Part shown: positions 5,902 to 32,055 of the stretch, in pieces | Layout: each line of letters starts with the position of its first letter | How positions within the stretch are numbered: the stretch's first letter is position 1 | NCBI GenBank assembly: GCA_947074145.1 | Contig: CAMTOJ010000002.1 | Coordinates: 40,742 to 104,741 of the forward strand | Origin: an uncultured Bacteroidales bacterium | Lineage (GTDB): Bacteria; Bacteroidota; Bacteroidia; Bacteroidales; JAUNSR01 | DNA: 64,000 nucleotides | Direction: 5' to 3' | Program-made: the position numbers and the translations under genes | Notes under the pieces: model-generated | What the model was told of the DNA's origin: nothing | The model's database searches: none | The model's input: only the letters and a program-made list of their open reading frames with translations

Positions 5902-5921
5902 CAGAAAAAGTGACATTAACG

Positions 5922-7436: not shown

Positions 7437-7457
7437 TAATAAAGAAACTAACAGACA

Positions 7458-8330: not shown

Positions 8331-8355
8331 TAACACTATTCAAGAGTAAACTTAT

Positions 8356-10206
8356 ATGAAAAATATAAATAGAATATTCGCTTCACTTTTAGCTGTCAAT
8401 TCTTTATTCTTCTTTCCCTCATGTGATAAGGAGGAAGAAAAAATAGTATTGACATTTGAAGTACCTGCTGCTACTACAGGTTTGGTATTCATGGCCGAAG
8501 GTTCTGATTCACAAACAATAGAATTTGTAGCAAACGGACAATGGAATGCAACATATTCAGCAAGTTGGTTTAATATAACCCCGAGAACTGGAAACGGTGC
8601 GGGAGTTATTGAAGTAACAGTGGTGGATAACGCTACGTTCGATCAGCGCCAGGGAGATATCACTATCAGAGATACAGAAACCGGAATTTCACAGAAAGTG
8701 ACTGTAACTCAGGGAGCAAAAGATCAATCTCTTGTTTTCAGCAAAGAGATGGCTTCGCTTACTATAAGTGATGTTTGTATATCGGATACGGTAAATGTAG
8801 CAGGAAACTATGCATGGGAGATATCCGAAATATCTGAATGGTTATCATATGAATTTATTGAGGAGAATCTTTCACAAAATTCAAGAACCATTGTCTTTTA
8901 CGCAGATATGACAAAACTTTCTCATATCGAGGAAACAGGAGAAGTGGTGTTCAAGGGTAACAACAATAATATCAAAGATACCCATTATCCGGTTTATTAT
9001 CCGGGATTCGAACCTATAGTATCATTGAAGTCAGGATTAGGATTAAGCTTTATTGATGTTGTTGATAATACTTTTGATTTTAATATTTCAAGTTCAAATG
9101 TTATCAGAATCGGACTCGAAATCACTGCTAATTATGAATATGAATTGACAGAACTTGATCATAGAATTACTCGTGTTCAGAATCAAAACGAAGATGTAAA
9201 GATTCAGAGCGGAGTATCGGCAAAAAGAAAGTATTTCGTTTATTATGATGCCGATAGTATCTATACAGAAGATATTTATGCAAATATCACTCTTAGAGCT
9301 ACTGATCTTGAAGGAATTGACGATGTTAATTTAAAGGGACGTGTAAAAGGAGTGGGAAGTGAATACTTATCTACCGATTATAGTAATTTCAAAAGAAATG
9401 ATATCGGTTTTCTATATTTAGAAGGAGGATCAAGAGATTCTAATGGAGAAGCAACAGGTTATCTTAGTGAGACTTTGAAAATATCTACATCTTATCCATT
9501 GTCGAATAATGAATCTGAATGGCCTTTTTCTATAATTGTTACTGAGTGTAAAGGCGGAATCCCTTTTTATTCTACAACACAAATAAGAGATTCATGGGTC
9601 TATGTAACAAAGATGCCTGAGGAAACAAAAGTGCCAATCGCTACTACTGATTTTCAAGTAAGAGTAGGAGTAAGAGGTGAAGATGAATCTGATTTTGCAC
9701 CTTCTAACGAAAGACAGTTTGCATTATTTATTATTCCGAAATCATTAGGAGTTGTATCAGCTGAAGAACTATTTGATGAAAACGGAACAGTGAAGAGAGA
9801 CTATTCATCTTTATTCCGTGCAATTTCGCAGAATGGTGTTGAAGCAACATATAACTTCATTTGTCCGCAGATGCCGGAAAATATTCTTGAAATTGACGCT
9901 AATACAAAAGAAGCTTATATCGAAGTTTATGATGAAAATGTTCCGGTTTCTTTAGGATTCAGATTCTTTACAGATTATAGAATCTTGAACAACAGAGTAC
10001 TTGGTAAAGGGCGTCCTTACAATGATCTTATCATTGAAGATGTAGAATATGAATTCAAAGATCTTAAAAACACTTTGAAAATCACATTCAATCCTAATAC
10101 AACATCATCGGAAAGAAGAGGAACTTATGGATTCGGTATCAATTTCTATAATGAATATCTACCAGGCTATAGCTTCGATATAATACAAAAAGCCTCAAAC
10201 GAATAA
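8356..10206 (+). CDS. BACON-domain surface lipoprotein
   Basis: 616 aa, lipobox 'FFPSCDKEEE'. BACON-like segment 'SDSQTIEFVANGQWNATYSASWFNITPRTGNGAGVIEVTVVDNATFDQRQGDITI...KVTVTQ', and a second degenerate copy ('NVAGNYAWEISEISEWLSYE'). Confidence 0.8.
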   Translation: MKNINRIFASLLAVNSLFFFPSCDKEEEKIVLTFEVPAATTGLVFMAEGSDSQTIEFVANGQWNATYSASWFNITPRTGNGAGVIEVTVVDNATFDQRQGDITIRDTETGISQKVTVTQGAKDQSLVFSKEMASLTISDVCISDTVNVAGNYAWEISEISEWLSYEFIEENLSQNSRTIVFYADMTKLSHIEETGEVVFKGNNNNIKDTHYPVYYPGFEPIVSLKSGLGLSFIDVVDNTFDFNISSSNVIRIGLEITANYEYELTELDHRITRVQNQNEDVKIQSGVSAKRKYFVYYDADSIYTEDIYANITLRATDLEGIDDVNLKGRVKGVGSEYLSTDYSNFKRNDIGFLYLEGGSRDSNGEATGYLSETLKISTSYPLSNNESEWPFSIIVTECKGGIPFYSTTQIRDSWVYVTKMPEETKVPIATTDFQVRVGVRGEDESDFAPSNERQFALFIIPKSLGVVSAEELFDENGTVKRDYSSLFRAISQNGVEATYNFICPQMPENILEIDANTKEAYIEVYDENVPVSLGFRFFTDYRILNNRVLGKGRPYNDLIIEDVEYEFKDLKNTLKITFNPNTTSSERRGTYGFGINFYNEYLPGYSFDIIQKASNE

Positions 10207-10224
10207 CTATAATTAGAAATAATA

Positions 10225-12864
10225 ATGAAATTCTTTAATAAAATATATTTATTAATAGCCTTATTAGGTTTTTCTATCTTCTCGTCTTGTAAAGACGAGA
10301 AGATGATGGAAGAGATTTCTGATATGGGTTATGTTCAGGTAAGAATATTACCTGAAATGACTACAAGGTCGATCACCCTTGAAACACTTGGTGATATCAA
10401 GAAGGTCGAACTGTCGCTTCTTTATAAAGATATGAAGGTAGTTCAGACAGTAACTATGTCTGGCATTGTTGATGCCATCGATTATGGTATCACTTCAGAG
10501 AGACTACAACTTGCAGCAGGAGAGTATACTCTTTTGAGCTATCGTTTGTTAGGTTCAGTTGTGTTAGGAGAAAGCGAACCTCAGGAACTAATGACAATAT
10601 ATCCTACTGAAGCCGCATACTTCAATATCGTTCAGGGTCAAATCCATGAACTTGATCTTGAAGTGTCAACTAAACTTCGAGGAAAAGTATCATTCATGCT
10701 TGAAAAAGATTTTACAAATTATCAGGAAGAGATGGATAAGGTTAATAATGAAACAAGAGCTACTACAGCTGCTCCTGAACTTTTCAGATATGACCTTATG
10801 CGCGATGTGGATATTTATGTGAAGAAAAAAGGCTCTAATGAAAGACCGGCTCTTTTATCTCTAACTTCATATGCTACAAATGCGGAAAGATTCCGTCACA
10901 CAGATACTATTTCTCTTGAAGCAGGTGATTATGAGATTACAAGTTATATGCTTTATACTAATAATCGAGTTGAAGTGATATTGGCAAATGATCTTACTGA
11001 TGTTTATTTTACGGTTGAACCAAACCAAATGAACAGAGCATCAATGGCAATCAGATATCCTGAAAATATGTATGCTATCAAAGATTATATTGCTTTATAT
11101 AATATTTGGAGAGCTCTTGATGGCGAGAACTGGCAATATACAGGATATTATTATCCATCTAATGCAAACTGGAGATTTAAAAACAGACCTATAGATGAAT
11201 GGGGCGCACAACCGGGCGTAACAATGAACTCCCGCGGACGTGTTATCAGTGTCAATGTAGGATCTTTCAATCCTTGTGGTGATGTTCCTTCTTGTTTAGG
11301 AGATTTGACGGAACTAAACAATTTATGGTTAGGAATGAATAGTGATGTTGAGATTGTAGATATTATGGATGAGTCATTATTCTACTCATTAGATAGATCT
11401 ATACTTGTTGATGAAGGAGTTGATATTATTGAAGAAAGAGAAAACATTGTAAGAGAAGAACTTTCTATCAGACATCACCAAAAACATAAATATACTCTAC
11501 TTGACGAATCAGAGAGAGTAATCAAAACTAACTTTGCAAGAACGTTTAGCAATAAGTATATTTCCAACAATACGATAACAACAAAAACAGGAATCGTTAG
11601 CCCGAAACCTAAAACAAATCGTATCAAAAGTATTCCTGCCGAAATCGGTAATTTGAAGAATCTTACTGTTCTTTATATCTCTAACGGTTTTGTAAGTGAA
11701 TTGCCGGAGACTCTTGCAGATCTTCCTAAGCTTACAGACGTAGAGTTGTATAACTGTAACTTTACAGAATTCCCTGAAGTTTTGGCAAAAATGCAAAAAC
11801 TGATTTTCCTTAACTTCAGTGCTAATCTTTCTATTCCGGAAGATAAATTTAATAAGGGAATTGACAATTTCCTTGCAACGTCACCTGAATTGCAGATCTT
11901 CTTTGCAACTGATAATAATTTGTCAGAATTCCCAATGAATATCCTTAAAGCAACTAAAATGGGATATGTGGATTTCTCTTATAATTATTTGACAGAACTT
12001 CCGAATCTTGAAAGAGCACTTGCTCCTGTTAAAGCATTTTTTGATTATAATAAGATTACAAAAATTCATGATAAATTCTGTAATACAGACGATATAGAAA
12101 ATATTAGTTTTTCTAATAATTTCTTAACTGAGATTCCAAACTTATTTGGGAACGGATTAGGTTCAGAAACAAAATATACAATGTCATCTGTCAATTTCAC
12201 AGCAAATCAGATTACATCTTTTGCTCCGGGATTTGCAGGAATTCGTACTTCTACACTTGATTTGACAAGCAATCCATTAGGAAGAGGTGGTCGTCTTTTC
12301 CCTGATGCTCTGGCTGATTCGAAATCTAAGATTTCATATCTTATTATGGATCAATGTGAACTTGACACATTGCCAAATTCAGCATTTAAGAATATGACAA
12401 TCCTTGAAGCATTGCAGGTAAAAGGAAATAGATTAAAGAATTTCCCTGAAGTATTTACTGTTGAGGAGATGCCTTATTTATCTGGACTTGATATCAGTTA
12501 TAATGCATTCAGATCATTACCAATTCAGCCTCTTTATATTCATAATTTGAATAAACTGTTTATGTTGAGTCAGCATGACCTTGACAGAAAAGGAAATCCA
12601 TACCGTTGCATGACAGAATTGGTTTCCGGACTTAACAAACATCCGGCTCTTAAATATCTTGATGTTTCAGGAAATGATATCCAGAGAATCTCAGCAGGTG
12701 ATTTTCCTGGTGGATTATTCGGATTTAATATCAGAAACAATCCGAATATTGAAGTTACAGTTTCTACAGTTGCTTGTAACTATATCGGATTAGGTTATTA
12801 CAGTTTCCTTTATGATGCAACACAGAACATTCAGGGATGTGCTTATATCGAATTAGAGGATTAA
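10225..12864 (+). CDS. Leucine-rich-repeat (LRR) surface lipoprotein with two N-terminal beta-sandwich-like modules
   Basis: 879 aa, lipobox 'IFSSCKDEK'. Long run of LRRs, e.g. 'IPAEIGNLKNLTVLYISNGFVSELPETLADLPKLTDVELYNCNFTEFPEVLAKMQKLIFLNFSAN'. Repeated N-terminal 'AGEYTLLSYRL' / 'AGDYEITSYML' modules. Confidence 0.85.
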   Translation: MKFFNKIYLLIALLGFSIFSSCKDEKMMEEISDMGYVQVRILPEMTTRSITLETLGDIKKVELSLLYKDMKVVQTVTMSGIVDAIDYGITSERLQLAAGEYTLLSYRLLGSVVLGESEPQELMTIYPTEAAYFNIVQGQIHELDLEVSTKLRGKVSFMLEKDFTNYQEEMDKVNNETRATTAAPELFRYDLMRDVDIYVKKKGSNERPALLSLTSYATNAERFRHTDTISLEAGDYEITSYMLYTNNRVEVILANDLTDVYFTVEPNQMNRASMAIRYPENMYAIKDYIALYNIWRALDGENWQYTGYYYPSNANWRFKNRPIDEWGAQPGVTMNSRGRVISVNVGSFNPCGDVPSCLGDLTELNNLWLGMNSDVEIVDIMDESLFYSLDRSILVDEGVDIIEERENIVREELSIRHHQKHKYTLLDESERVIKTNFARTFSNKYISNNTITTKTGIVSPKPKTNRIKSIPAEIGNLKNLTVLYISNGFVSELPETLADLPKLTDVELYNCNFTEFPEVLAKMQKLIFLNFSANLSIPEDKFNKGIDNFLATSPELQIFFATDNNLSEFPMNILKATKMGYVDFSYNYLTELPNLERALAPVKAFFDYNKITKIHDKFCNTDDIENISFSNNFLTEIPNLFGNGLGSETKYTMSSVNFTANQITSFAPGFAGIRTSTLDLTSNPLGRGGRLFPDALADSKSKISYLIMDQCELDTLPNSAFKNMTILEALQVKGNRLKNFPEVFTVEEMPYLSGLDISYNAFRSLPIQPLYIHNLNKLFMLSQHDLDRKGNPYRCMTELVSGLNKHPALKYLDVSGNDIQRISAGDFPGGLFGFNIRNNPNIEVTVSTVACNYIGLGYYSFLYDATQNIQGCAYIELED

Positions 12865-12889
12865 TAAAAAATAAATTGACAATTTTATT

Positions 12890-14572
12890 ATGAAACAATT
12901 TTCAAAAATAAAATCAGTTTTAATGCTCCTTTTTATAGGATCCCTGGTGATTCTTACATCATGTAAAGATTCAGATGATGATAAAATCACTGGTTTTGAT
13001 GTAAATGAAAGTGAGATGATTTTTACTGAAAATGGAGGTTTACAGACTTTCAAAATAACTACCGGTTATGCATGGAGTGCACAGTCGAATGCAGATTGGC
13101 TTATGGTATCTCCTGCTACGGGTGTAGGTTCGGCAGAATGTGAAGTAAAAGTTGATTCTTCTTATCTGTATAGTGAACGTAAAGCACAGATTCTTATTGA
13201 AACGGAAAATGGAGCGAAAATGATAGAGATCAATCAATTCGGGTTTGAAAAAGCTATTCGTATTGAAGAACCTTCTGTTTCAATTCCTCACTACAAAAGA
13301 CTTGATGAAGCGTTTTTCGAAGTCAACATAAGTTCTAATGTAGCTTATGAAATAATTATATCAGACGAAGATCAGGAATGGTTGACATTAGACGGAGATA
13401 TTACCACTTATGATCCGACTACTGCTACTCCAAGAAAACAGACTTATAAGTTTAAATATGGAGTACACAGTAATTTCCGTCAATCCCGAAAAGGTAATAT
13501 AGAATTTCGTCAGACAGGTGTAGCTGAACCTATTTCATCGATTGTTGAAGTTGAGCAAAATGCTGCTCCTAAGATTGTTCCATCAAGAGCAGGAGACTCT
13601 TTGGCTCTTCTTGCAATTCAGTCACAACTTCAGGTATATGGAGGCGGTTGGGAATCAAGCCGTCCGATGACTCACTGGGATGATATAAATCTTGAAAGTA
13701 TTGATTACGTATATTATGATGAAGATCTTGGTATTAGCAAGGATACAACAGAGATGCGTGTAACAGGCGCTAGATTCTTCTTCTTCTTTACAGAGGAGTC
13801 TCTTCCTGTAGAGGTTAAATATCTAACAGAGATCGAAACGTTGATTTTCCAGGGTAATGCCAACCGTTCGAGACATACAATTGATCTTGGATCTGAAGTA
13901 ACAGAACTTAAAAATCTTAAGAGTCTGGCGATTAATGGTTACGGAATAAAGAGTTTACCAAAAGAGATGATAGAAATGGATAATCTTGAAGAATTATCAA
14001 TCTATGCAAATAACTTCCTTGAGTTCCCTCTTGATATTATAACCAAAATGAAAAATCTAACATATTTTGATTTTTCTAATCAGAGAATTACAGAAGGTAT
14101 CACTTCTCTTGCCGATATACCTGCAGGATATGATCCTGATAACATCGGTTTAAGAGGTACAATTCCTGTAGAATTGTTCAATATGCCTAAGATTGAATAT
14201 CTGTATTTGTCGCATTGTTATCTTGAAGGTGAATTACCTACTTTACCTGTTGGCTCACATCCTCAATTACGTCGCTTTACAGCAAATGGTAACCGTTTGA
14301 CTGGCGATATTCCTGAATGGATATTACAGCATGAACGTCTTGCTTGTTGGGATCCATATGTACTTCTATTCACTCAGGAAGGAATGGATTCACAAGGAAA
14401 CCTTGCAGGATTCTCTAATGAACCGGGACGTCTTCCTAATCCTGATTGTCCGGATGATGAAGAAGATACAAAATCGTATATCATGAGATCGTCGGGTAAT
14501 GACTTTAAGAATGATGATAAATTACCTCTAACAGGAAATTGGGGTGAATATAAAATACAATTTAAAAAATAA
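12890..14572 (+). CDS. BACON + LRR surface lipoprotein
   Basis: 560 aa, lipobox 'ILTSCKDSDDD'. BACON-like 'GGLQTFKITTGYAWSAQSNADWLMVSPATGVGSAECEVKV...ILIETENG...INQ'. C-terminal LRRs including plant-type 'LRGTIPVELFNMPKIEYLYLSHCYLEGELP...NRLTGDIPEWI'. Confidence 0.85.
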   Translation: MKQFSKIKSVLMLLFIGSLVILTSCKDSDDDKITGFDVNESEMIFTENGGLQTFKITTGYAWSAQSNADWLMVSPATGVGSAECEVKVDSSYLYSERKAQILIETENGAKMIEINQFGFEKAIRIEEPSVSIPHYKRLDEAFFEVNISSNVAYEIIISDEDQEWLTLDGDITTYDPTTATPRKQTYKFKYGVHSNFRQSRKGNIEFRQTGVAEPISSIVEVEQNAAPKIVPSRAGDSLALLAIQSQLQVYGGGWESSRPMTHWDDINLESIDYVYYDEDLGISKDTTEMRVTGARFFFFFTEESLPVEVKYLTEIETLIFQGNANRSRHTIDLGSEVTELKNLKSLAINGYGIKSLPKEMIEMDNLEELSIYANNFLEFPLDIITKMKNLTYFDFSNQRITEGITSLADIPAGYDPDNIGLRGTIPVELFNMPKIEYLYLSHCYLEGELPTLPVGSHPQLRRFTANGNRLTGDIPEWILQHERLACWDPYVLLFTQEGMDSQGNLAGFSNEPGRLPNPDCPDDEEDTKSYIMRSSGNDFKNDDKLPLTGNWGEYKIQFKK

Positions 14573-14577
14573 TTAAG

Positions 14578-16269
14578 ATGATCAATAAGATAAAATACAC
14601 ACTTGTAATATGCCTGGCAGTTTGCCTGGGCATATTTACAAGCTGCTCTGATGATGATAAGGATTTATCTCCTTCTCTTGGAGAGAATCAGGGAGAGGTG
14701 ATATTTAGTTTTGCACGTATCAATACTTATCATGTAGATGATCTGCTTGATATAAAGACAATAAAAGTAACATTGAAAAAAGATGGAAAAGAGATAACTC
14801 TTCCTTCTTATGAGATGTTTGGGACTAAGGATTCGGTAGCAACAAAAGCGATAGCTGTTGATGCAGGTTCTTATGCTTTGTATAAATATATCGCATTTGA
14901 TAATAGAGGCGATATGCTTTATGAAGCTTATCCGGAAGATGAGGAGTATTTTGAAGTAAGATCAGGAGAACTTTTCCAGTTTTATTTCCCGATTAAAATT
15001 CGTGTTGATATATCAACTTCTTTATTGAAAAACAAACTTCTTGGAATGTGTCAGGAAATTTGGGGTAATGATACCATAAAATGGCCAAAGACATGGAGAG
15101 AATATAACAATGAACCACGTACATGGGAAAATCTTTACTGGGAACTTGACGGATATAATAATGCAGCCTATATCTCAGGTATAAGATTTGATGAGACATT
15201 TAAAGGGATGACAAAACTTCCTCAATCTCTGTTTGGAATGGTTTATATGACTAATATTGATATAATAAATCTTCCTGAATTCACTGATCTTGGTGAAAAC
15301 ATCGCTGATCTTAATATCAATAGTCTTTATCTTGAGAATACAGGAGTTAAAGAGTTTCCGAAAGAGTTCGGAAAGATGAGAAATCTTTATAGTCTTACGG
15401 TAGTTAATTGTCCTATTACTAAGATACCTGAGTCAATAGGAGAGATTTCAACAATGAACTCACTTCACATTGAAAATGCAGATATTACAGAGGTCCCTTA
15501 TGATCTTGTAGAGAAATTGGATAAATACAGAATGTTCAATCTGAAGAATACTAAGATTACTTCATTACCTGATAACTTCTTTACAGCTTTGAAAATTGTT
15601 TCGACTGTCGATCTTTCAGGGAATAAAGGTCTTTCTGTTTTACCATCACAGATTAATCAGGGTCAGAATAATCTGAGAGGACTTAATTTATCTGATTGTT
15701 CGTTTACTTCTATACCGGAAATTACGAAAGTGGCAAAAATCACACATCTGACGATGAATAATAATGAGTTAACTTCATTTGCATCTGAAGATATGTCGCC
15801 TTACTTTGAGGTATTGAACCTTAACGGTAATAATATATCAACTTTCCCATCATTGACTAATGATGTTTTGGTTGAGCTAACTTTAAGCGGAAATCCTATC
15901 ACTGTATTACCTGATTTATCAGGTTATCCACAACTTGCAGTTTTTGGTTTGGCAAGTACCGGAATTGAACTTATTCCGGATTCATATTTTGCATCGAATC
16001 CTTATCTGTCATATTTGGATCTAAGTAATAATGCTAATCTTACAAATGTATCAGAAAATGCAGGATTCACTATGGAAACTTATGATGATATTGTTGACGG
16101 AGTAACTGAGACAAAAGAAAGACCACAATATCTTTCTAAACTGGAGGTTAATGATTGCCCTGAACTAAAATGGGTGATTCCGGCATCTTGGTTACCAAGA
16201 CAGGTAAACGGTCCTAACAACGGACTTTTCTTGAATAATCAAAATTCATCGGGCGTTATTGTCCGATAA
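14578..16269 (+). CDS. LRR surface lipoprotein
   Basis: 563 aa, lipobox 'IFTSCSDDDKD'. Starts 5 nt after the previous gene. N-terminal module with 'AGSYALYKYIAF', then more than 10 LRRs ('LYLENTGVKEFPKEFGKMRNLYSLTVVNCPITKIPESIGEISTMNSLHIENADITEVP'). Confidence 0.85.
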   Translation: MINKIKYTLVICLAVCLGIFTSCSDDDKDLSPSLGENQGEVIFSFARINTYHVDDLLDIKTIKVTLKKDGKEITLPSYEMFGTKDSVATKAIAVDAGSYALYKYIAFDNRGDMLYEAYPEDEEYFEVRSGELFQFYFPIKIRVDISTSLLKNKLLGMCQEIWGNDTIKWPKTWREYNNEPRTWENLYWELDGYNNAAYISGIRFDETFKGMTKLPQSLFGMVYMTNIDIINLPEFTDLGENIADLNINSLYLENTGVKEFPKEFGKMRNLYSLTVVNCPITKIPESIGEISTMNSLHIENADITEVPYDLVEKLDKYRMFNLKNTKITSLPDNFFTALKIVSTVDLSGNKGLSVLPSQINQGQNNLRGLNLSDCSFTSIPEITKVAKITHLTMNNNELTSFASEDMSPYFEVLNLNGNNISTFPSLTNDVLVELTLSGNPITVLPDLSGYPQLAVFGLASTGIELIPDSYFASNPYLSYLDLSNNANLTNVSENAGFTMETYDDIVDGVTETKERPQYLSKLEVNDCPELKWVIPASWLPRQVNGPNNGLFLNNQNSSGVIVR

Positions 16270-21564: not shown

Positions 21565-23175
21565 ATGAGAAAATCTTTAGTTCTTTTAAGCTCGGCCTTT
21601 ATGTTGGCGGGTTTAATTACATCATGTTCTGATAAGGAAGAGTCTTTGATTTCTACTCAGGAAGAGGCTGCTTATTTTAGTACATCTTTGAGTATTTCAA
21701 CTAATGAATTCAAAACTAGAACAGAGGTTGCAGATACAGAAGAAACTCCTATCTGTGATTGGGTGGATCTTGCAACTGCTGCTGCTTTTGATGCTTCTGC
21801 TTATGAGGCAGAAATCACAATTGTTTATCACAAAGGTTCCACAAGTGAATCACAACCTGATGTTTTTAAAGTTCCTATTAAGAATATCAAACTTGATGAT
21901 GACGGAGATCCTGTAGCTGTTACTGATCAATTTACTTTGATTAAACCTTTAACTAAACATGAATTGGTTGGTATAAAGATTGTTGATAATCAGGATAATG
22001 TTATTTTCTCTACTGTTAAAGAGGGTGCTCTTTATGCAAATCATATAAGAGAAGCTCATCTTATGCCATTGAGCATTTATGTGGGTATAGATGATACTGC
22101 AGAAGAAGGTACAGTAGAAAGAAAAGTTATCATCGATGATAAAGAAAAGACTCCTATTAAGACTTCTGTTCTTTGTGCATTTGAAGAAGAAGCTCCTAAC
22201 TTCGGATATTCACTATGGACATTCAATTTTGTAAGAGTTGTATGTATCCCTTATTCTGTAAATGTTAAGAAAGAACCTTGTGAATCTAATTCTAAAGACG
22301 TCTATGGAAAAACTAAAATTACTCTAAGTCGTGTTGACGGATCTGATACTTATGTTCATGAAAGTTCAACTCTATTTGACGAAGAAAGAGAAGAGGTAAT
22401 GGGTAAAATATGTTTCAACTATCAGGGTGATCAAGATTATAAAGAACAAGAATGGACTCTTAAACTTGAAATTTTCTTCTTAAGTGGAGCAACTGCTGTT
22501 ATTGAAAGCACTATCTCTTTGGAAGATCTTTGGAATTATAAAGAAAGCGGTTACTGGGTATATCCTAAAGGTACAATCTTTAATAAAGAAGATAATAATT
22601 ATGATCCTAAGGGATATATTCACTTTGATTTCTTTAATGTAGATCTTACTAAAGCAGGTGCAATCTCTAACCCTGAAGCTGACGGAACGTGGGAATTAGA
22701 AATTACTAAAGCTATTAATTGTTGCGACGATATTATTGCTTGTGAAGATGTAGAAGTGGACACTTCTTCTATTCAAGAATTTTATGCAGCAATAAAAGAC
22801 TTAACAGGTGAATGTGCATGGACTGGTGGAACTGTAGAAGATGGCGCTCTTTATATCAATGCAGGTCAGAAAATTACATCTCCTGTTTTTGAACTTGAAG
22901 AAGGTCAAATTATAAATGCTTTGGTAGAAAAATATGGAACAGAAATCGCAACACAAGAGGAATATTTCAAATTATATGATGCTTGTACAGATGCTCTGAT
23001 TATTAATGAAAAAGGAGACGAGGTTACAAGAAGTCTTTCCGGCCTTCAAGTCTATTCAATTAAAGCTAATTATAAAGGCAAATTTTATGTAACTCTTGAA
23101 GCAAGTGAACAAAATGATGGAAAAGCGTCAATCGTAAACTTTACTTTTAAAAAAGCACTTGAAGAAATCAAATAA
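21565..23175 (+). CDS. Lipoprotein of unknown function, paralog 1 of a tandem pair
   Basis: 536 aa, lipobox 'LITSCSDKEE'. Shares long blocks with 23339..25093, e.g. 'EEAPNFGYSLWTFNFVRVVCIPYSVNVK'. No family recognised. Confidence 0.8.
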   Translation: MRKSLVLLSSAFMLAGLITSCSDKEESLISTQEEAAYFSTSLSISTNEFKTRTEVADTEETPICDWVDLATAAAFDASAYEAEITIVYHKGSTSESQPDVFKVPIKNIKLDDDGDPVAVTDQFTLIKPLTKHELVGIKIVDNQDNVIFSTVKEGALYANHIREAHLMPLSIYVGIDDTAEEGTVERKVIIDDKEKTPIKTSVLCAFEEEAPNFGYSLWTFNFVRVVCIPYSVNVKKEPCESNSKDVYGKTKITLSRVDGSDTYVHESSTLFDEEREEVMGKICFNYQGDQDYKEQEWTLKLEIFFLSGATAVIESTISLEDLWNYKESGYWVYPKGTIFNKEDNNYDPKGYIHFDFFNVDLTKAGAISNPEADGTWELEITKAINCCDDIIACEDVEVDTSSIQEFYAAIKDLTGECAWTGGTVEDGALYINAGQKITSPVFELEEGQIINALVEKYGTEIATQEEYFKLYDACTDALIINEKGDEVTRSLSGLQVYSIKANYKGKFYVTLEASEQNDGKASIVNFTFKKALEEIK

Positions 23176-23338: not shown

Positions 23339-25093
23339 ATGAAAAAGTCATTATTTTTTATTAGCTCAGCTTTTTTATTGGCTGCATTGACAAGTTCTTG
23401 CTCCGATGAAAATAAGGATCAGCTTGCAATGTTTGAGGATGATGCTTTTATTAATCTCTCTTTAAATATCTCTACCGGAGATATTAAGACTAAAGCGATG
23501 ATTGATGCTACAGATGACGGGACAGACGCAGAAGGAATTTGTTGGAACGAAGATTTGAAGAATCTCGAATCAACTTTCGATGCTTCTCAATATGAGGCAA
23601 AAATAACAATCAGATATCATGTCGATGCCAATGATCAAGACAAAGGCAATGATATTATTTTTGTTCCTATTAAAAATATTGTTTTAGAAGATGGTTCTCA
23701 GCCGGTTGCTGTAACTGATCAGTTTTCTTTGTTGAAACCTCTTAAAGATACTCGTCATGTTGTTGATGGTATCTATATAATCACTAAAAAGCAAGCCGGA
23801 GACGGAGAAGATTTTGTTCCTAAAGTTGTTTTCTCTTCAGTTGTTTCCGGAGCTAATTATGCTAATCATATTAGAAAAGATCATCAGATGCCAATAAGCC
23901 TATTTGTAGGAGATACAGATAGTTATGAAAATGTTGATGATATTAACTATGTAGTAATTAATGATAAAGTAAAAACTCCAATACCTGTGTCTGTTTTATG
24001 CGCAGTCAATGAGGAAGCTCCGAACTTTGGTTACTCTTTATGGTCTTTTAATTTTGTAAGAGTAGTTTGTATACCTTATTCCGTAAATGTCAAAACCAAT
24101 CCTTGTGACGAATATTCAAAAGATATTTATGGTATAACCGATCTTACTATTTCTCGTATATCTAAAACTGGATTATTAGAGGAAGGTAAAGAGTTTTCAT
24201 ATGAAATCTTTCATCATAGTTCAACTACAGAAGATGAAGTTGTGGGTAAAATTTGCTTCAATTATCAAAGTGATGAAGCAATAGATGATCAGATTTATGA
24301 TCTTAGTTTGACTATTAAATTTAAAAATGGAAGAACAGCAACGATATTTGGTCAAATTCCACTTGAAAATCTTTGGAATTATAAGAACAGCGGTTATTGG
24401 GTCGTTCCTAAAGGTTCAGATATAAATTCAACAGATGGTTATATTCACTTTGATCTCTTTAATATTGATATTACTAAATCTGGTATTATAAATAGTGAAT
24501 TTAAAGAGGAAGATGGTAAATGGATACTTAAAATTATAGAACCTTATTTATGTGAATCCGATTTTAGTTGTAACGAATCAAAAATTAAATTCCCTACGAA
24601 TTTGCCTAATGGAGTTGATAATTATGTAGAAACCAATTCTCCATTAACAGAATGTGATTGGATATTTGTTCGCTTTACACAAGGAATAAAAAGTCCAACA
24701 TTATATTCGTTTGACGGAGCACTTTATTCTCCTATTATTTATTTGAATAAGGGGGATATTGCAACATATGCAATAAAAACAGCTGTAAATTTTGGTGAAG
24801 GAATAGAAAAAGATTATTGTTTGAATAAATACTACGAAGTTGAACTTATACCTATTGATGTTAATTCATACAATACTATGACCCAATTTACAAAGCAAAC
24901 CAAAAATTTAGAAAATAAAGAAGTATGCCTATGTGCTCATGAACTATTATCAACAACTATAAGTTCATCTGCTGCTCCGGAATCAAATTATTATAGAGTT
25001 AAGTTTAATATTAAAACAAAGAATCCTGATGAATACGCAACAATTGTAACTGATTTTAGTTACACAGGCTTTGAAGAAAAAAAAGATCTATAA
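23339..25093 (+). CDS. Lipoprotein of unknown function, paralog 2 of a tandem pair
   Basis: 584 aa, lipobox 'LTSSCSDENKD'. N-terminal ~380 aa are collinear with paralog 1; the C-terminal ~200 aa are unrelated and Cys-rich. Confidence 0.8.
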   Translation: MKKSLFFISSAFLLAALTSSCSDENKDQLAMFEDDAFINLSLNISTGDIKTKAMIDATDDGTDAEGICWNEDLKNLESTFDASQYEAKITIRYHVDANDQDKGNDIIFVPIKNIVLEDGSQPVAVTDQFSLLKPLKDTRHVVDGIYIITKKQAGDGEDFVPKVVFSSVVSGANYANHIRKDHQMPISLFVGDTDSYENVDDINYVVINDKVKTPIPVSVLCAVNEEAPNFGYSLWSFNFVRVVCIPYSVNVKTNPCDEYSKDIYGITDLTISRISKTGLLEEGKEFSYEIFHHSSTTEDEVVGKICFNYQSDEAIDDQIYDLSLTIKFKNGRTATIFGQIPLENLWNYKNSGYWVVPKGSDINSTDGYIHFDLFNIDITKSGIINSEFKEEDGKWILKIIEPYLCESDFSCNESKIKFPTNLPNGVDNYVETNSPLTECDWIFVRFTQGIKSPTLYSFDGALYSPIIYLNKGDIATYAIKTAVNFGEGIEKDYCLNKYYEVELIPIDVNSYNTMTQFTKQTKNLENKEVCLCAHELLSTTISSSAAPESNYYRVKFNIKTKNPDEYATIVTDFSYTGFEEKKDL

Positions 25094-25287: not shown

Positions 25288-26646
25288 TTATTTTAGCAAT
25301 GAAATAAGTTCATTGAAGGAAATAAGTTTTTGTTCCCCAGACAACATATCTTTAAGATTAATCATATTCTGAGAAATCTCATTTTCACCGATAAGAGCAA
25401 CAAATGGTATTTTCTTAGAATCTGCATATCCCATTTGCTTTTTCATTTTAGCATTTTCAGGGTAAATTTCAGCTCTTATACCCTCTTTTCTTAATTGAGA
25501 AACGAGTTTAAGACAATGTTTCTGTTCTTCAGCTCCGAAATTCACAAATATAATCTGAGTTGTCATTAAAGAATCTTCAGGATATAATTCAAGCTGATTA
25601 AGAACATCAAAAATACGATCGGCACCAAAAGATATACCTACACCGGACACGCCCGGCATCCCGAATACTCCTGTAAGGTTGTCGTAACGACCTCCACCTG
25701 TTATTGATCCGATTTGAACATCAAGAGCCTTTACTTCAAAAATGGCACCTGTATAATAATTAAGACCTCTTGCAAGAGTAAGGTCAAGATCAAGCTGACA
25801 TTTTATACCCACAAGATCTATATTATCAAGAATAAATTCCGATTCTTCTATTCCTTTAAGTCCTGTTTGAGAAGCCGAAAGAATAGTTTTTAGTTTTTCA
25901 AGTTTCTCTCTATTGCTTCCTTCAAGCATGATAATAGGTTGAAGTTGAGAGATAGCCTCCTCAGTCAGCCCTTTTAGACGAAGCTCTTCATTTACTTTTT
26001 CAAGGCCGATCTTATCAAGTTTGTCAATAGCAACGGTGATATCTACAATTCTTTCAGGCTCACCAATTATTTCAGCAATTCCTGTAAGAATTTTTCTGTT
26101 ATTCATCTTTATGGCAACGTTTATACCGAATCTACCAAATACCTCGTCAATTATCTGTATAAGTTCCACCTCATTAATAAGAGAATCAGAACCTACGACA
26201 TCTGCATCACATTGGAAAAATTCGCGATATCTGCCTTTTTGAGGTCTGTCGGCTCTCCATACAGGTTGAATTTGATATCTTTTAAAAGGAAAAGCAATCT
26301 CATCGCGATGCATCACCACAAAACGAGCAAAAGGTACTGTAAGATCATATCTCAATCCCTTTTCACATAACTGGGATGCAAGCTTTGCTATATTTTTATT
26401 ATCAATATCTTCTTTGTTTGCACCTTTTAGAAAATCGCCGGAATTCAATATCTTGAAAAGAAGTTTATCTCCCTCTTCTCCATATTTTCCCATTAATGTA
26501 GAAAGCATCTCCATAGCCGGGGTTTCAATCTGTTGATAACCGTACAGGTGATATACGTCGCGAATAGTATTGAAAATATAGTTTCTTTTCGCCATCTCCT
26601 GAGGCGTAAAATCTCTGGTTCCCTTTGGAATTGATGGTTTTGCCAT
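25288..26646 (-). CDS. hisS: Histidine--tRNA ligase
   Basis: '[12 protein letters not shown]', '[27 protein letters not shown]', 'GGGRYDNL', C-terminal anticodon-binding domain. I prefer the start at MAKPSIPKG (26646) over the upstream ATG at 26700. Confidence 0.95.
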
Positions 26647-26736
26647 AACTTTATTGTAAATAGTTTTATTTTGAGCGCAAAGATAAGAAAAGTCAGACAA
26701 TTAAATTCATTTCTATTTTATTATGAGATTATTTTA

Positions 26737-28212: not shown

Positions 28213-28238
28213 AAAGTACACCTATGGATGTGTACTTT
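28213..28238 (+). terminator. Hairpin terminator after pepT
   Basis: AAAGTACAC ... GTGTACTTT perfect 9-bp stem. Confidence 0.6.
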
Positions 28239-28254
28239 AAAGCTATAATATTAT

Positions 28255-28302
28255 TTAAGCATTGGATGTATGATATCTAGAATTCATATAATCCAATGCT
28301 TA
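28255..28302 (-). terminator. Hairpin terminator after the ars operon (arsP end)
   Basis: TTAAGCATTGGA ... TCCAATGCTTAA perfect 12-bp stem just downstream of the arsP stop. Confidence 0.65.
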
Positions 28303-28324
28303 ATTATTTCAGGGTCATTATAAT

Positions 28325-29293
28325 TTATAATACGAGATTAAAAATATATCCCAGCAGAATTATAAACAATGTTATAGTTGCGAAGAAGATGAATATTAGT
28401 CTCCATGTCATAACTTTTTTAAGCATTGTTGCCTCCGGTATAGACAACCCCACAACAGACATCATAAAAGCCATTGCAGTACCAAGTGGGACACCTTTTG
28501 CTACGAAAACCTGTATAACAGGAACGATACCGGCAGCATTTGCATACATTGGTACAGCAAGTATTACTGCTATTGGTACACTATACCATTTATCTGCCGA
28601 AAGATGTTCTTCGAAAAAACTTTCCGGAACATAACCATGCATCGCAGCACCAATAGATATACCTATTATTATATATATTAGCACTCCCTTTACTATGGAC
28701 CAGGCATCTTTTAAGATAACAGGTAATCGATGAAAGAATGTAACTCTCTCTGTCTTCCACTCCTCTGTTTCAGACTCTGAATGAACCTGTATAGCACGAA
28801 CCCAAGGTGTCAAATATTTATCAAGTCTGAACTTACCAAGAATCCATCCACCGGCGACTCCAAGCAATATCCCGCTAAATAAATATATAAGGGTAATTCT
28901 CAAGCCGAATGTACCAAGAAACATTGCTACAGCCACTTCATTCACAAGGGGAGAGGTGATAAGAAACGAAAAGGTTACCCCAAGAGGTATTCCTCCCTTG
29001 ACGAAGCCTATGAATAAAGGTATGGATGAGCAGCTGCAGAAAGGTGTAATAGCACCGAATACAGACGCCAGAAGATATTGAAAACCGTAAAGTTTTCGTG
29101 TCATAAGAAAGTTGCGTAATCTGTCTATCGGAAGATATGCATTTACAATACCCATTATCACACTGATAAGAAAAAGAAGAAAAATAATCTTTATCGTATC
29201 ATAAATAAAAAAATTAAGAGCTGATCCCAAATGACTATCAGAGTTTAACCCGATAATATTAAAAATAAGCCAGTCTGCAAATTCTTGTATCAT
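28325..29293 (-). CDS. arsP: ArsP-type organoarsenical efflux permease (DUF318 'permease' family)
   Basis: 322 aa polytopic membrane protein. Carries the signature vicinal-Cys motif 'TPFCSCSSIP' and lies last in an arsR-led operon. Confidence 0.75.
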   Translation of the reverse strand: MIQEFADWLIFNIIGLNSDSHLGSALNFFIYDTIKIIFLLFLISVIMGIVNAYLPIDRLRNFLMTRKLYGFQYLLASVFGAITPFCSCSSIPLFIGFVKGGIPLGVTFSFLITSPLVNEVAVAMFLGTFGLRITLIYLFSGILLGVAGGWILGKFRLDKYLTPWVRAIQVHSESETEEWKTERVTFFHRLPVILKDAWSIVKGVLIYIIIGISIGAAMHGYVPESFFEEHLSADKWYSVPIAVILAVPMYANAAGIVPVIQVFVAKGVPLGTAMAFMMSVVGLSIPEATMLKKVMTWRLIFIFFATITLFIILLGYIFNLVL

Positions 29294-29296
29294 ATC

Positions 29297-30244
29297 TTAA
29301 CACCCCCTTCCACATGAACATTCCGGAAGTACCTGTTTTTTAATCTCTTTGATATAAAATTCAAAAAAGCCACTCTTTATTTCATCTCTTACTCTTCTGA
29401 ACTCCGATTCAATAAAATCCGGAGAACCTGTTGCATGAGAAGGATCATCGAATCCTATATGTATTCGGTGTTTTACATTTCCTGTGAAAGCCGGACAAAC
29501 TTCGTTGGCGCCACCGCATACAGTTATTACATAATCCCAGTCTTGATCAAGATATTTTTCAACAGAATCCGATGTATGTCCGGAGATATCTATGCCAACC
29601 TCTTTCATCGCTTTAACAGCTCCGGCATTCAATTTACCTGCGGCATCCGTACCGGCTGAACAGACTTTCATACCTTTATCAAAAGATTGAAGAAATCCAT
29701 GAGCCATCTGACTACGGCAACTGTTTCCTGTACATAAAATAAGTACTTTCACTCTGTCTTCCAGTATTAACTGCCAGTGACCTAAATCTCTCCACTCTGC
29801 GAATTTATTTCCTATCTCTTTAAAATGCGAAATGTTTTTAAATCCATATTTCTCATGTAATGCGATACTTGCTTCATTTGGTAGTGCTATGCCCGCAATG
29901 ATAGTATGAAAACGCGATAAATCAATTTTATTAAGAAGATGATCCATCATTACGCTTCCTATCTGCTTATTTAGGTAGTCTTTATCAATATAGATAGATA
30001 TTTCTACCGATGTTCTATATGCACAACGACCTGACCAAGCATGAAGATAACAGTAACCTACAACTATATTATTTATCTCATATACAAAATATGGATAACC
30101 TCCGGATATAAAATCCTGTATTCGTTGTTCCATATCCTTAATGCATACAGCATCTGTTTCAAAAGAAACCGCAGTATTCTCAACATAATAATTGTAAATA
30201 TCACAGATTCTTCCCGCATCCCCAATTGTGACTTTTCTTATCAT
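29297..30244 (-). CDS. Fusion protein: N-terminal GNAT/PAT-like acetyltransferase (ArsN-like) + C-terminal LMW-PTP-type arsenate reductase (ArsC)
   Basis: 315 aa. Residues 1-~165 look like a phosphinothricin-acetyltransferase-type GNAT ('YYVENTAVSFE', 'GYCYLHAWSGRCAYRTSVEISIY', 'ALHEKYGF'). Residues ~170-300 have 'VLILCTGNSCRSQMAHGF', 'VITVCGGA..VCP', 'DDP'. There is an extra Cys-rich tail, 'PECSCGRGC'. Confidence 0.8.
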   Translation of the reverse strand: MIRKVTIGDAGRICDIYNYYVENTAVSFETDAVCIKDMEQRIQDFISGGYPYFVYEINNIVVGYCYLHAWSGRCAYRTSVEISIYIDKDYLNKQIGSVMMDHLLNKIDLSRFHTIIAGIALPNEASIALHEKYGFKNISHFKEIGNKFAEWRDLGHWQLILEDRVKVLILCTGNSCRSQMAHGFLQSFDKGMKVCSAGTDAAGKLNAGAVKAMKEVGIDISGHTSDSVEKYLDQDWDYVITVCGGANEVCPAFTGNVKHRIHIGFDDPSHATGSPDFIESEFRRVRDEIKSGFFEFYIKEIKKQVLPECSCGRGC

Positions 30245-30948
30245 ATGTATAATGTTATTATATAATAAATTCCGATAACTATAAATAATATCGATATTAT
30301 AATATTAAGCCATTTTTGTATGGTAATGACTTTTTTATAAAAATTGCTTATTTCTGATATACTATATGCCAAAACCCAAGCAACTATGATAACCGGTAAC
30401 CCTGTTGCTATAGCAAAAGCTATAGGTAATAGATATCCTCCTGTTTCATAGGCAGACATAGGCATAAGCATCCCAAAATATATAACTCCGCTTGTAGGAC
30501 AGAAGGCGAGTGAAAATATTATACCTAATAAAAATGCCCCTAATCCTCCTTTATTCTTTAGTTTTTCTCCGTTATTATTGAATTTTAATCCGGGTATATT
30601 TATTCTGCTTGAAAAAAGCATAAACACTCCTATTAGTATTAAAGCCGGTCCCATAAATATTTCACCGTATTTAGAAATAAATTTCTGAATACCATATATA
30701 CTTGTCCCTTCTCTTAATAAAGGTATTATTATGAATCCAAGTAGGGTATATACAATTAGGCGACCAAGAGTGTAATATATTCCGTTCCTAAAAACTCTGT
30801 GTCTGTTTTCAATATCTTTGCTTAAATATCCTATTGCTGTGATATTTGTTGCCATTGGACAAGGACTTATTGCTGTAAGGATGCCAAGTATAAATGCTGT
30901 AAACAATGGTATTGTACTGTGTTCTGTAAGGGTCTGAAGATATTCCAT
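30241..30948 (-). CDS. DsbD/CcdA-like polytopic membrane protein (ArsG-family-like)
   Basis: 235 aa, ~6 TM, 'AISPCPMATN' and 'SLAFCPTSG' motifs. Overlaps the downstream gene by 4 nt. Proteins of this type in Bacteroidota ars operons are, from memory, annotated as the ArsG family. Confidence 0.6.
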   Translation of the reverse strand: MEYLQTLTEHSTIPLFTAFILGILTAISPCPMATNITAIGYLSKDIENRHRVFRNGIYYTLGRLIVYTLLGFIIIPLLREGTSIYGIQKFISKYGEIFMGPALILIGVFMLFSSRINIPGLKFNNNGEKLKNKGGLGAFLLGIIFSLAFCPTSGVIYFGMLMPMSAYETGGYLLPIAFAIATGLPVIIVAWVLAYSISEISNFYKKVITIQKWLNIIISILFIVIGIYYIITLYI

Positions 30949-30950
30949 AA

Positions 30951-31391
30951 TTATTTTTGTAATTCTTCGATTTTATCCTTTATTCCCGTTTTAAATTTAT
31001 CAGGTGAATTTCGTGAGAATGAAAAAGCAAAATCAGTCATATTATTAACGCTTTCTTTTCCTTCAACCCATTTATTTACAAAAAGAGAAGACCAGGTCAC
31101 TTCATATTTATCAGCAATTTTTTCTCCCTCTTTTGTTGATATATTTATAACTTTAAAAATCACTCTGTTTTTATTTATTGTATCTGTAAAATAAGTGTCA
31201 ATAACTTCTTTTGTCAGAGATTCTATAGCATTACAGGTTATACAACGTTTTTTTGTGTGAAAATAAAGTACTTCGATGCAATCCTTATCTTTATCTGTAT
31301 CTGAAGAGATCTTATCGTTATAGTTCTGCTTATGACCACAAGAAATCATTGTATATGAGATTATTAGAATACACATCCATTTTTTCATCAC
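30951..31391 (-). CDS. Thioredoxin-fold lipoprotein (ArsF-family-like)
   Basis: 146 aa, lipobox 'TMISCGHK', CxxC redox motif 'KKRCITCNAIE'. Sits between the glutaredoxin-like gene and the DsbD-like gene. Confidence 0.55.
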   Translation of the reverse strand: MMKKWMCILIISYTMISCGHKQNYNDKISSDTDKDKDCIEVLYFHTKKRCITCNAIESLTKEVIDTYFTDTINKNRVIFKVINISTKEGEKIADKYEVTWSSLFVNKWVEGKESVNNMTDFAFSFSRNSPDKFKTGIKDKIEELQK

Positions 31392-31395
31392 ATAT

Positions 31396-31629
31396 TTATT
31401 TTAAGATTAATTCTTTCACCTCTGATAAAGAAAGTTTTTTTCCTTTTGAAACAACCTTTTCATCAATAACGATTGCTGGTAGAGTCATTACATTATATGA
31501 CATAATATTCATCATGTCTTCCTCTTTAATTACTACGGCTTCAATATTGCACTCTCTTACTGCTTGATTTACCGTTTCAAACAATGCTTTACAAGAAGCA
31601 CATCCCGTACCTAATACTTTTATTTCCAT
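31396..31629 (-). CDS. Small thioredoxin/glutaredoxin-like protein (redox-active disulfide protein 2 type)
   Basis: 77 aa, 'MEIKVLGTGCASCKAL', typical of the TM0996/MTH895-type proteins seen in ars operons. Confidence 0.8.
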   Translation of the reverse strand: MEIKVLGTGCASCKALFETVNQAVRECNIEAVVIKEEDMMNIMSYNVMTLPAIVIDEKVVSKGKKLSLSEVKELILK

Positions 31630-31686
31630 ATGATAGTTTATTTTTAATATGTAATTCGCAAAACAACGAACAATAATTATAAAAAA

Positions 31687-32019
31687 TTATTTACAACATT
31701 TCGTACTTATAAGATTATCGTTTTGAAAGAAATTTCCGAATAATTCTTTTGCTATCACCCAGTTTTCTTTATTTATACAATATTTTACTTTAGGTGTTTC
31801 CACTTCGCCCTGAATAAGTCCAGAATCCTTTAACTCTTTAAGATGTTGTGAAACTGTAGCTTTTGCTATTGGTAACTCTTCATGGATATCGCCAAAATAA
31901 CAGTTTTCCTGTTTCAAGAGAAAATCAAGTATTGCAATGCGTGTAGGATGTCCCATTGCTTTGGCAAATCTTGCTAATAATATCTGATTATCTGTTGGCT
32001 CATTTTTACATTTCATCAT
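31687..32019 (-). CDS. arsR: ArsR/SmtB-family metalloregulator
   Basis: 110 aa. '[16 protein letters not shown]', wHTH '[18 protein letters not shown]'. C-terminal vicinal cysteines 'STKCCK'. Only one Cys at the classical CVC position. Confidence 0.85.
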
Positions 32020-32033
32020 AAAAGTTTATTTGT

Positions 32034-32055
32034 TTGTTCGTAAATGTACGAACAA
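32034..32055. promoter_or_regulatory. Candidate ArsR operator (perfect 9-4-9 inverted repeat)
   Basis: TTGTTCGTA-AATG-TACGAACAA, 15-36 nt upstream of the arsR start codon. Confidence 0.5.

Follow-up and report, generated by a model that had tools for sequence, protein, structure and literature searches.

A compact ars cassette with an ArsN1-like–ArsC fusion and no As(III) pump nearby in a gut-type Bacteroidales bacterium

We analyzed a stretch of 64,000 nucleotides (here called the window) from an uncultured Bacteroidales bacterium (assembly GCA_947074145.1, contig CAMTOJ010000002.1) and found that it carries, on the minus strand at 32019..28325, six open reading frames (ORFs) in the order arsR-arsE-arsF-arsG-arsN1::arsC-arsP, the fifth of which joins an acetyltransferase to an arsenate reductase. 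This is a real ars operon made of known families, an ordinary though uncharacterized member of the arsR-EFG-P type of cassette. Our preferred reading, to which we assign a probability of about 0.55, is that of a self-contained, ArsR-repressed accessory ars cassette of gut-type Bacteroidales, lying between pepT and miaA and working in the way proposed below.

The intergenic distances within the operon are, in gene order, 57, 4, 2, -4 and 3 nt. A first-pass annotation of this DNA had described six tightly packed minus-strand genes, and all of its coordinates and spacings proved exact. Every motif that it had quoted was found as well (GCASC, CITC, TPFCSCS, the PECSCGRGC tail and the KCCK of ArsR), and Pfam and NCBIfam profiles of each product returned the gene identities that it had named.

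The acetyltransferase–ArsC fusion is genuine and recurrent

The fusion gene (29297-30244, minus strand, as are all operon features below) encodes a 315-aa protein with GNAT and LMWPc domains. Its N-terminal half (residues 1-162, 29759..30244) is a PAT-like, ArsN1-like GNAT, its C-terminal half (residues 166-301, 29342..29749) is an ArsC of the low-molecular-weight protein tyrosine phosphatase (LMW-PTP) type, and a Cys-rich C-terminal tail (…LPECSCGRGC, 29300..29329) follows. The ORF is uninterrupted, and the identical 315-aa protein is encoded on at least 10 independently assembled contigs from different samples (ENA, Logan, NCBI), the largest of them 143 kb long. A homology search returned about 48 clusters at 90% identity that combine GNAT and LMWPc; with clustering at 50% identity the fusion is found in two or more divergent clusters, among them P0017 (Bacteroidales) and P0280 (36% identity), and a second fusion clade exists in Flavobacteriia. 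When 23 fusions were aligned, they proved to be 47-86% identical, without an indel at the junction and with a short gap-free linker kept throughout. An assembly or frameshift artefact, of which the first-pass annotation had warned, was rejected because of the at least 10 contigs with the identical protein and the conservation of the junction across the 23 homologues. The fusion is therefore genuine. The claim that it is unusual is not supported, given the roughly 48 clusters at 90% identity in Bacteroidales, the second clade in Flavobacteriia and a review that, citing Chauhan 2009, already mentions occasional fusions of arsN to arsC or arsD (PMC6205960).

Genomic context was compared across 80 GTDB loci chosen by ArsC motifs, a sample that holds mostly stand-alone ArsCs and in which fusions are under-sampled; fusion loci were added through contigs encoding the fusion protein (L081, L083, L085-L088), which together with the window gives seven. 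In loci of the Flavobacteriia type, arsN and arsC are adjacent and in frame, being separated by one or two stop codons in two of them (L050:5039-6007 and L052:9995-10921) and fused in a third (L046:9980-10897). Since the split and fused forms share a frame, a change in one stop codon is enough to create or to break the fusion. We propose that it would be a Rosetta-stone product, created by stop-codon loss between neighboring ars genes, and that it would secure co-expression; a common substrate for the two activities would not be required.

The first-pass annotation had suggested more, namely that the fusion points to coupled chemistry on an organoarsenical. In one version of this scheme the GNAT half would N-acetylate arsinothricin or an aromatic amino-arsenical made by ArsEF, the ArsC half would reduce As(V), and the Cys tail would hand the product to the CSC thiols of ArsP. 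The short gap-free linker, kept over such divergence, is in line with this, as are three cassettes (window, L081, L085) in which arsP directly follows the fusion gene, the CSC of the tail, which mirrors the FCSCS of ArsP, and the occurrence of the fusion always in operons without Acr3. However, this ArsC clade has at least seven other fusion partners (proteins P0049-P0120): ArsR, an ArsM-like methyltransferase, C_GCAxxG_C_C, a cytidylyltransferase-like domain (PF01467), DsbD_2, Fer2_BFD ([2Fe-2S]) and rhodanese. Moreover, the split in-frame pairs exist, the slot of the fusion is taken by a plain ArsC of 153 aa in an otherwise identical Alistipes cassette (L042), the tail is found on stand-alone ArsCs and missing in most fusions, and two minimal operons consisting of arsR and the fusion have no ArsP (L086, L088). 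In the AlphaFold2 (AF2) model of the fusion protein the individual domains are good and the tail is of low confidence, but a predicted template modelling score (pTM) of 0.55 indicates no confident packing or interface between the domains. LMW-PTP ArsCs are not known to reduce organoarsenicals, and this also counts against coupling. We conclude that coupled chemistry is improbable, and the claim is not supported.

The ArsC half and its Cys-rich tail

The C-terminal half (PF01451, TIGR02691) is a predicted thioredoxin-coupled arsenate reductase of the pI258 type. Its P-loop C171-TGNSC-R177-S178, the C243/C250 pair and D267 align with Cys10, Arg16, Cys82, Cys89 and Asp105 of Bacillus subtilis ArsC (PDB 1jl3, E 1.5e-30), and these catalytic residues are invariant in the 23 aligned fusions. 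The ArsC half would reduce arsenate with electrons provided by thioredoxin or by ArsE.

The tail had been described as an addition to the fusion protein. PECSCGRGC is indeed present, but it is not special to the fusion: the PxCSCxxxC tail is shared by the closest fusions and by the stand-alone ArsCs of L001, L002, L003, L004, L033 and L065, and is thus a trait of an ArsC sub-clade. As a signature of the fusion it was rejected, since stand-alone ArsCs also have it. The tail may bind As(III).

Cys-rich C-terminal tails also recur on unrelated proteins of ars neighborhoods (L032:8005-8427; L046:9502-9993; several ArsCs). Examples are a rhodanese ending in QGCAGCSCGCSNPSEDCK, a 163-aa protein ending in CTPGGGCC, and ArsCs ending in xCSCGxxC or SCACGANDFCQCE. 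Such recurrent tails may be As(III)-binding handles.

The acetyltransferase half is ArsN1-like

Among NCBIfam models the GNAT half is matched best by ArsN1 family B (NF040504, 178 bits), followed by PAT with 111 and ArsN1 family A with 84 bits; in Pfam it matches PF13420 with 68 bits. Its best relative in the PDB is PpArsN1 of Pseudomonas putida (5jtf/5wph/6m7g; E 4e-27, residues 7-159), which has only a narrow lead, at 98 bits, over a Streptomyces PAT at 92 bits. In PpArsN1, arsinothricin is contacted by Ile31, Phe33, Arg75, Ala76, Arg77, Ala124 and Val158 (PMC6465285). The aligned residues of the window protein are V26, F28, S71, G72, R73, A120 and L154, so that three contacts are identical (Phe33, Arg77, Ala124), three are changed conservatively (Ile31, Ala76, Val158) and one non-conservatively. 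Operationally, ArsN1 is a PAT-like GNAT that is encoded in an ars operon and acetylates arsinothricin (PMC6465285), and we call the window domain ArsN1-like because, by sequence and by its place in an ars operon, it qualifies as ArsN1 but misses the NCBIfam cutoff. It would N-acetylate an amino-acid arsenical of the arsinothricin type.

Alternatively, the GNAT half could be an ordinary acetyltransferase of the PAT or methionine sulfoximine (MSO) type with no arsenic substrate, present by chance or for resistance to glutamine-synthetase inhibitors. The near-equal PDB scores and the score short of the ArsN1 family B cutoff would suit such an enzyme, and PpArsN1 itself was originally reported as a phosphinothricin resistance gene (PMC6465285, PMC11637737). 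Yet arsR lies directly upstream of the fusion in all seven fusion loci, the split Flavobacteriia pairs likewise stand directly behind arsR, the covalent link to ArsC is kept over wide divergence, and the ArsN1 family B model scores far above the PAT model. Clustering of the GNAT half with ordinary PAT or unrelated acetyltransferases outside ars contexts had been named beforehand as a refuting outcome; the context was ars in 7/7 fusion loci. An acetyltransferase unconnected with arsenic therefore strikes us as very unlikely.

ArsR and a putative duplicated operator over a -7 box

ArsR (110 aa, 31687-32019) is a winged-helix HTH_5 protein (PF01022) of the metalloregulator subfamily, scoring 62.4 bits against NF033788 (cutoff 55). 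In a hand alignment with the R773 repressor, the classical CVCDLC As(III) site was absent and only one Cys, C40, was found in the region of helix alpha-3, near the classical site. The remaining cysteines are C81 and the C-terminal vicinal pair C108-C109, which bears out the earlier description of a KCCK pair in place of the classical site. An alignment with 29 relatives revealed two types of Cys layout, one with a vicinal CC in helix alpha-3 and one, that of the window, with a single alpha-3 Cys plus a C-terminal Cys or CC.

The predicted ArsR operator O1 (32034..32055), located 14 nt 5' of the arsR ATG, is a perfect 9-4-9 inverted repeat, TTGTTCGTAcattTACGAACAA, that overlaps the -7-type box TAcaTTTA (Bacteroidetes consensus TAnnTTTG). 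A second, weaker predicted ArsR box, O2 (TTCGTTGTTTTGCGAA, 31655..31670), is a motif match inside the arsR-arsE gap. The core motif TTCGTAnnTTTRCGAA has 3 matches in the window where 0.11 would be expected; a sigma-70 promoter scan was uninformative, with 22 sites against 23.9 expected. An O1-type box stands 5' of arsR in nearly all related loci. The conserved form of the box is TTGTTCGTAnnTTT(G/A)CGAACAA with the -7 motif TAnnTTTG embedded in it, and in most relatives TAnnTTTG forms the center of the box. Because this center reads as a Bacteroidetes -7 element, the predicted operator and promoter overlap. For both the operator function and the -7 assignment we assume that what is established for ArsR/SmtB operators and Bacteroides promoters applies here.

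The boxes come in twos, one 5' of arsR and one between arsR and the first structural gene. Besides the window, such pairs were found in L081 (8189 and 8573), L085 (8238 and 8616), L086 (9276 and 9952), L088 (9567 and 9945) and L005 (6554 and 6891), and in L033 the second box lies directly beyond the called end of arsR. The 57-nt gap is the only large one in the operon because the second box sits there, and O2 is probably an internal ArsR-controlled promoter serving the structural genes. We propose that ArsR would bind the inverted repeats over the -7 box both 5' of arsR and in the arsR-arsE gap, and would let go of the DNA once a trivalent arsenical, the likely inducer, binds C40 together with C108/C109. 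This conserved and duplicated putative ArsR operator over a -7 promoter box is new in this analysis.

ArsE, ArsF and ArsG resemble a thiol-disulfide relay

The thioredoxin-fold and DsbD-like pair that had been likened to ArsF and ArsG turned out to be part of a complete ArsE-ArsF-ArsG triple, encoded by contiguous genes and above the NCBIfam family cutoffs throughout. ArsE (77 aa, 31396-31629; TIGR00412, MTH895/ArsE family, 105 bits, cutoff 62; PF13192) is a thioredoxin-like, cytoplasmic protein with no signal peptide, related to MTH895 (PDB 1ilo, E 1e-9); its CxxC, C10-A-S-C13, is 98% conserved among 41 homologues. ArsF (145 aa, 30951-31388; NF040494, 118 bits, cutoff 60) is a lipoprotein with the lipobox ...MISC and an FHxxxRC-I-T-C motif whose CxxC is 100% conserved among homologues; an alternative GTG start at 31391 would give 146 aa, but gene callers choose the ATG at 31388. 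Its thioredoxin fold has no Pfam match, but the AlphaFold2 model (predicted local distance difference test, pLDDT, of 82) shows the CxxC at the N-terminal end of helix 1, and a Foldseek search of the PDB with this model gave top matches that were all thioredoxins, including Bacteroides fragilis TrxP. ArsG (235 aa, 30241-30948; NF040495, 282 bits, cutoff 200; PF13386 DsbD_2) is a CcdA/DsbD-like protein with about 6 transmembrane segments, whose membrane cysteines C30 (SPCP) and C150 (FCP) are conserved in 100% and 93% of homologues; CcdA (5vkv, E 8e-6) was the sole sequence match in the PDB.

With a CxxC protein that lacks a signal peptide (ArsE), a CcdA-like protein bearing two membrane Cys (ArsG) and a lipoprotein of thioredoxin fold with an invariant CxxC (ArsF), the anatomy of the three looks like that of a relay carrying thiol-disulfide exchange from cytoplasm to periplasm, a direction of electron flow that is predicted from these features. 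ArsE in the cytosol, ArsG in the membrane and ArsF as the lipoprotein would form a thiol redox module that nearly always accompanies ArsP. The arsE gene also adjoins that of ArsC or ArsP in many loci without ArsF and ArsG, and for this reason the data are compatible with ArsE acting as private reductant of ArsC, of the ArsP cysteines, or of both.

The NCBI family names for this module come from the Shewanella ArsEFG system for nitro-aromatic arsenicals. Chen, Zhang and Rosen reportedly described in 2019 (Environ Sci Technol; cited in PMC9144182) that in Shewanella putrefaciens 200 ArsEF nitro-reduces trivalent roxarsone, Rox(III), and trivalent nitarsone, Nit(III), and that ArsG exports the resulting amino-arsenical. 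The anatomy seen here flags a possible mismatch: the databases name a nitroreductase subunit and an efflux permease, whereas the proteins belong to the thioredoxin and CcdA families.

ArsP and the missing As(III) pump

ArsP (322 aa, 28325-29293), the product of the last operon gene, matches PF03773 (ArsP_1) with 218 bits (cutoff 32) and has about 7 transmembrane segments and a TPFC86SC88S motif that is 100% conserved in 25 homologues. Its best NCBIfam matches, to SaoE and to Cu/Zn efflux transporters, do not reach the respective cutoffs. A literature search for the ArsP Cys65 motif found nothing. According to a passage of the review PMC6205960 that relays Chen et al. 2015, Campylobacter jejuni ArsP exports methylarsenite, MAs(III), and Rox(III) but does not extrude As(III). 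The window ArsP would export trivalent (organo)arsenicals by way of its membrane CSC thiols.

When all 44 large ORFs of the window were scanned for hydropathy, none was a multi-transmembrane ORF like Acr3/ArsB, so a hidden Acr3/ArsB was rejected there, and neither was found in the adjoining 9.5 kb on the left side, about 73 kb being covered in all. ArsA and ArsD are likewise absent from the operon and from these ~73 kb, and at all seven loci that carry the fusion Acr3/ArsB is missing over a distance of 10 kb. The reported absence of Acr3, ArsB, ArsA and ArsD from the operon was thus confirmed and extends to the surroundings. The broader statement that there is no As(III) pump stands only locally, over the ~73 kb. 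Across the sampled loci, Acr3 occurs in 46/80 selected by ArsC. ArsF and ArsG occur together in 21 loci, of which 19 have an ArsP-type permease, 17 have Acr3 and 16 have both, the usual layout being arsR-E-F-G-P followed by arsR-arsC-(arsM)-acr3. Because 17 of these 21 arsEFG-bearing loci sit beside arsC-acr3, an As(III) pump may lie elsewhere in the genome. Those without Acr3 are gut Bacteroidales, namely Prevotella (L033, order R-C-F-G-E-P), Alistipes (L042) and Muribaculaceae (L053, order R-C-E-F-G-P). The link between the fusion and the absence of Acr3 is suggestive, though the loci compared are related to each other.

This pattern raises the possibility of a complete inorganic-arsenic system in which the ArsP-type permease, or ArsG, itself exports As(III) and the absence of Acr3 is functional. 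An ArsC without any As(III) exit is hard to make sense of, and both the lack of Acr3 (within 10 kb at 7/7 fusion loci and ~73 kb at the window) and the recurrence of ArsC and ArsP cassettes without it in Alistipes, Prevotella and Muribaculaceae agree with such a system. PF03773 is, moreover, a heterogeneous family in which the best NCBIfam matches of the window protein fall below cutoff, and according to proposals mentioned in the review, ArsP falls into two clusters 'probably with different functions' and can form an arsenite pump together with ArsA (PMC6205960). On the other hand, the C. jejuni protein does not extrude As(III), and the presence of Acr3 in 17/21 arsEFG loci, in 16 of them alongside an ArsP-type permease, argues for non-redundant roles. 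The scan for Acr3 covered about 73 kb of this genome, and aquaglyceroporins are established as another As(III) exit. We regard As(III) export by the cassette itself as unlikely. The As(III) made by the ArsC half could leave through a pump encoded elsewhere or an aquaglyceroporin, or else this ArsP or ArsG could be broader in its specificity.

Distribution and genomic surroundings

Relatives are found in Rikenellaceae, Alistipes and other Bacteroidales. L081 and L085 have the identical six-gene order between unrelated flanks, whereas the order is permuted in L083, beside an integrase, and in L087, near transposase and integrase remnants. The cassette is, as we read these loci, a mobile unit. 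At the window, a search for an insertion scar in the form of flanking direct repeats gave no convincing pair and this idea was rejected. The G+C content of the operon, 30-36%, is close to the 28-39% range of the window.

In L083 the fusion cassette also adjoins a divergent classical nitroreductase gene (PF00881) and a phage-type integrase (8734-9330, 7079-8248). The nitroreductase is of interest because of the link of ArsEFG to nitro-aromatic arsenicals. Near ArsC in 10 of the 80 loci (e.g. L017:3433-4206) lies the gene of a 257-aa protein which, by eye only, resembles a pyrroline-5-carboxylate reductase or an NADP oxidoreductase.

The operon is bounded by housekeeping genes, hisS and pepT at one end and miaA at the opposite end. 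Behind arsP lie two hairpins (28213..28306, minus strand) whose inverted repeats are terminator-like and would serve as such: one has a 16-bp stem at 28252-28306 and the other reads AAAGTACAC-N8-GTGTACTTT at 28213-28238, and both are common to the end of arsP and the convergent pepT. No Rfam family was found at 26.5-34 kb of the window. For hisS (ORF 25288-26700), gene callers give 452 aa, compared with 470 aa from a TTG start; this start, like the GTG of arsF, probably lies too far 5'. Further away are two tandem paralogous lipoprotein genes (21565-23175 and 23339-25093; 536 and 584 aa) with nearly identical signal peptides (MxKSLxxxSSAFxLAxLxxSCSD), and a SusC/SusD-type polysaccharide utilization locus at 2956-16269 that is followed by several lipoprotein genes and speaks for a Bacteroidales origin. 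In L094, the first two genes match Plug/TonB and SusD in Pfam.

Discussion

Several observations weigh against the reading of an ArsR-repressed accessory cassette working as proposed here. Both enzymatic halves of the fusion stay under their equivalog cutoffs, the GNAT half for ArsN1 family B (178 against 210 bits) and for ArsN1 family A (84 against 170), and the ArsC half for TIGR02691 (127.2 against 174.3 bits). One of the seven arsinothricin contacts, Arg75 of PpArsN1, is replaced non-conservatively by Ser71. The relay suggested for ArsE, ArsF and ArsG departs from the published assignment as nitroreductase and efflux pump. Finally, the product of ArsC is As(III), for which neither the cassette nor its neighborhood encodes a known exporter, so that an arsenate-reducing role would be incomplete unless a pump or channel is encoded elsewhere.

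A more far-reaching alternative is a dedicated pathway for amino-organoarsenicals in the anaerobic Bacteroidales of the gut, built of ArsN1::ArsC, ArsE as private reductant and ArsP as exit, with ArsE-ArsG-ArsF as a CcdA-type relay that sends reducing power to the periplasm instead of a nitroreductase plus pump. Arsinothricin would be one possible substrate, and an aromatic amino-arsenical derived from roxarsone or nitarsone another; after acetylation and reduction to As(III), the compound would be exported. Such a pathway would explain the consistent absence of Acr3 from these cassettes; we nevertheless consider it a long shot.

Should the accessory-cassette reading be right, common gut Bacteroidales would carry a compact mobile determinant against organoarsenicals and not against inorganic arsenite. 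The compounds concerned would include methylarsenite, phenylarsenicals of veterinary use and possibly arsinothricin, an antibiotic, and this would matter for the speciation of arsenic in animal husbandry as well as in the gut. In addition, Bacteroides genetics and the design of biosensors could draw on the ArsR box with its Bacteroidetes -7 element as a ready-made switch that responds to arsenicals. The present picture of arsenic resistance is unchanged, as all parts belong to known families.

Comparison with known systems

The operon invites comparison with that of Bacteroides (Phocaeicola) vulgatus ATCC 8482, which Li, Mandal and Rosen reportedly described in 2016 (Anaerobe) as arsenical-inducible and beginning with arsR. 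In that operon, three small genes that at the time had no known function follow arsR, the counterparts of the trio made up of thioredoxin-like protein, lipoprotein and CcdA-like protein; its ArsC is reportedly of the thioredoxin type, and it continues with arsD, arsA, acr3 and arsC, which provide the inorganic As(III) pump; the window operon instead continues with ArsN1::ArsC and ArsP, without ArsD, ArsA or Acr3. The ArsEFG proteins of S. putrefaciens 200 share with those of the window the NCBIfam families whose cutoffs the latter pass, but the CxxC motifs of ArsE and ArsF, the lipoprotein signal of ArsF and the two membrane Cys of ArsG suggest a CcdA-type relay in the window. With C. jejuni ArsP the window protein has in common its PF03773 family, its place in an ars operon and its gut origin; the C. 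jejuni operon also holds Acr3, whereas that of the window does not.

Both the window GNAT and the ArsN1 (PhoN1) of P. putida KT2440 are PAT-like GNATs encoded in an ars operon. However, PpArsN1 is a stand-alone protein from an arsRBC-type operon of an aerobe, and the window GNAT is fused to ArsC, has Ser in place of Arg75 and scores below cutoff. In the same way, the ArsC half retains the fold, the CX5R P-loop, Cys82/Cys89 and Asp105 of the Staphylococcus aureus pI258 and B. subtilis enzymes (1ljl, 1jl3), from which it differs in being GNAT-fused, Cys-tailed and sub-cutoff. As for the fusion itself, ArsC is, in the words of one passage of the review, a small domain 'predestined' to fuse with ars proteins, and that passage names ArsR-ArsC, Acr3-ArsC of Mycobacterium tuberculosis and AqpS-ArsC of Salinispora (PMC6205960). 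The partners in those cases are a regulator or a channel, whereas the partner in the window is an acetyltransferase.

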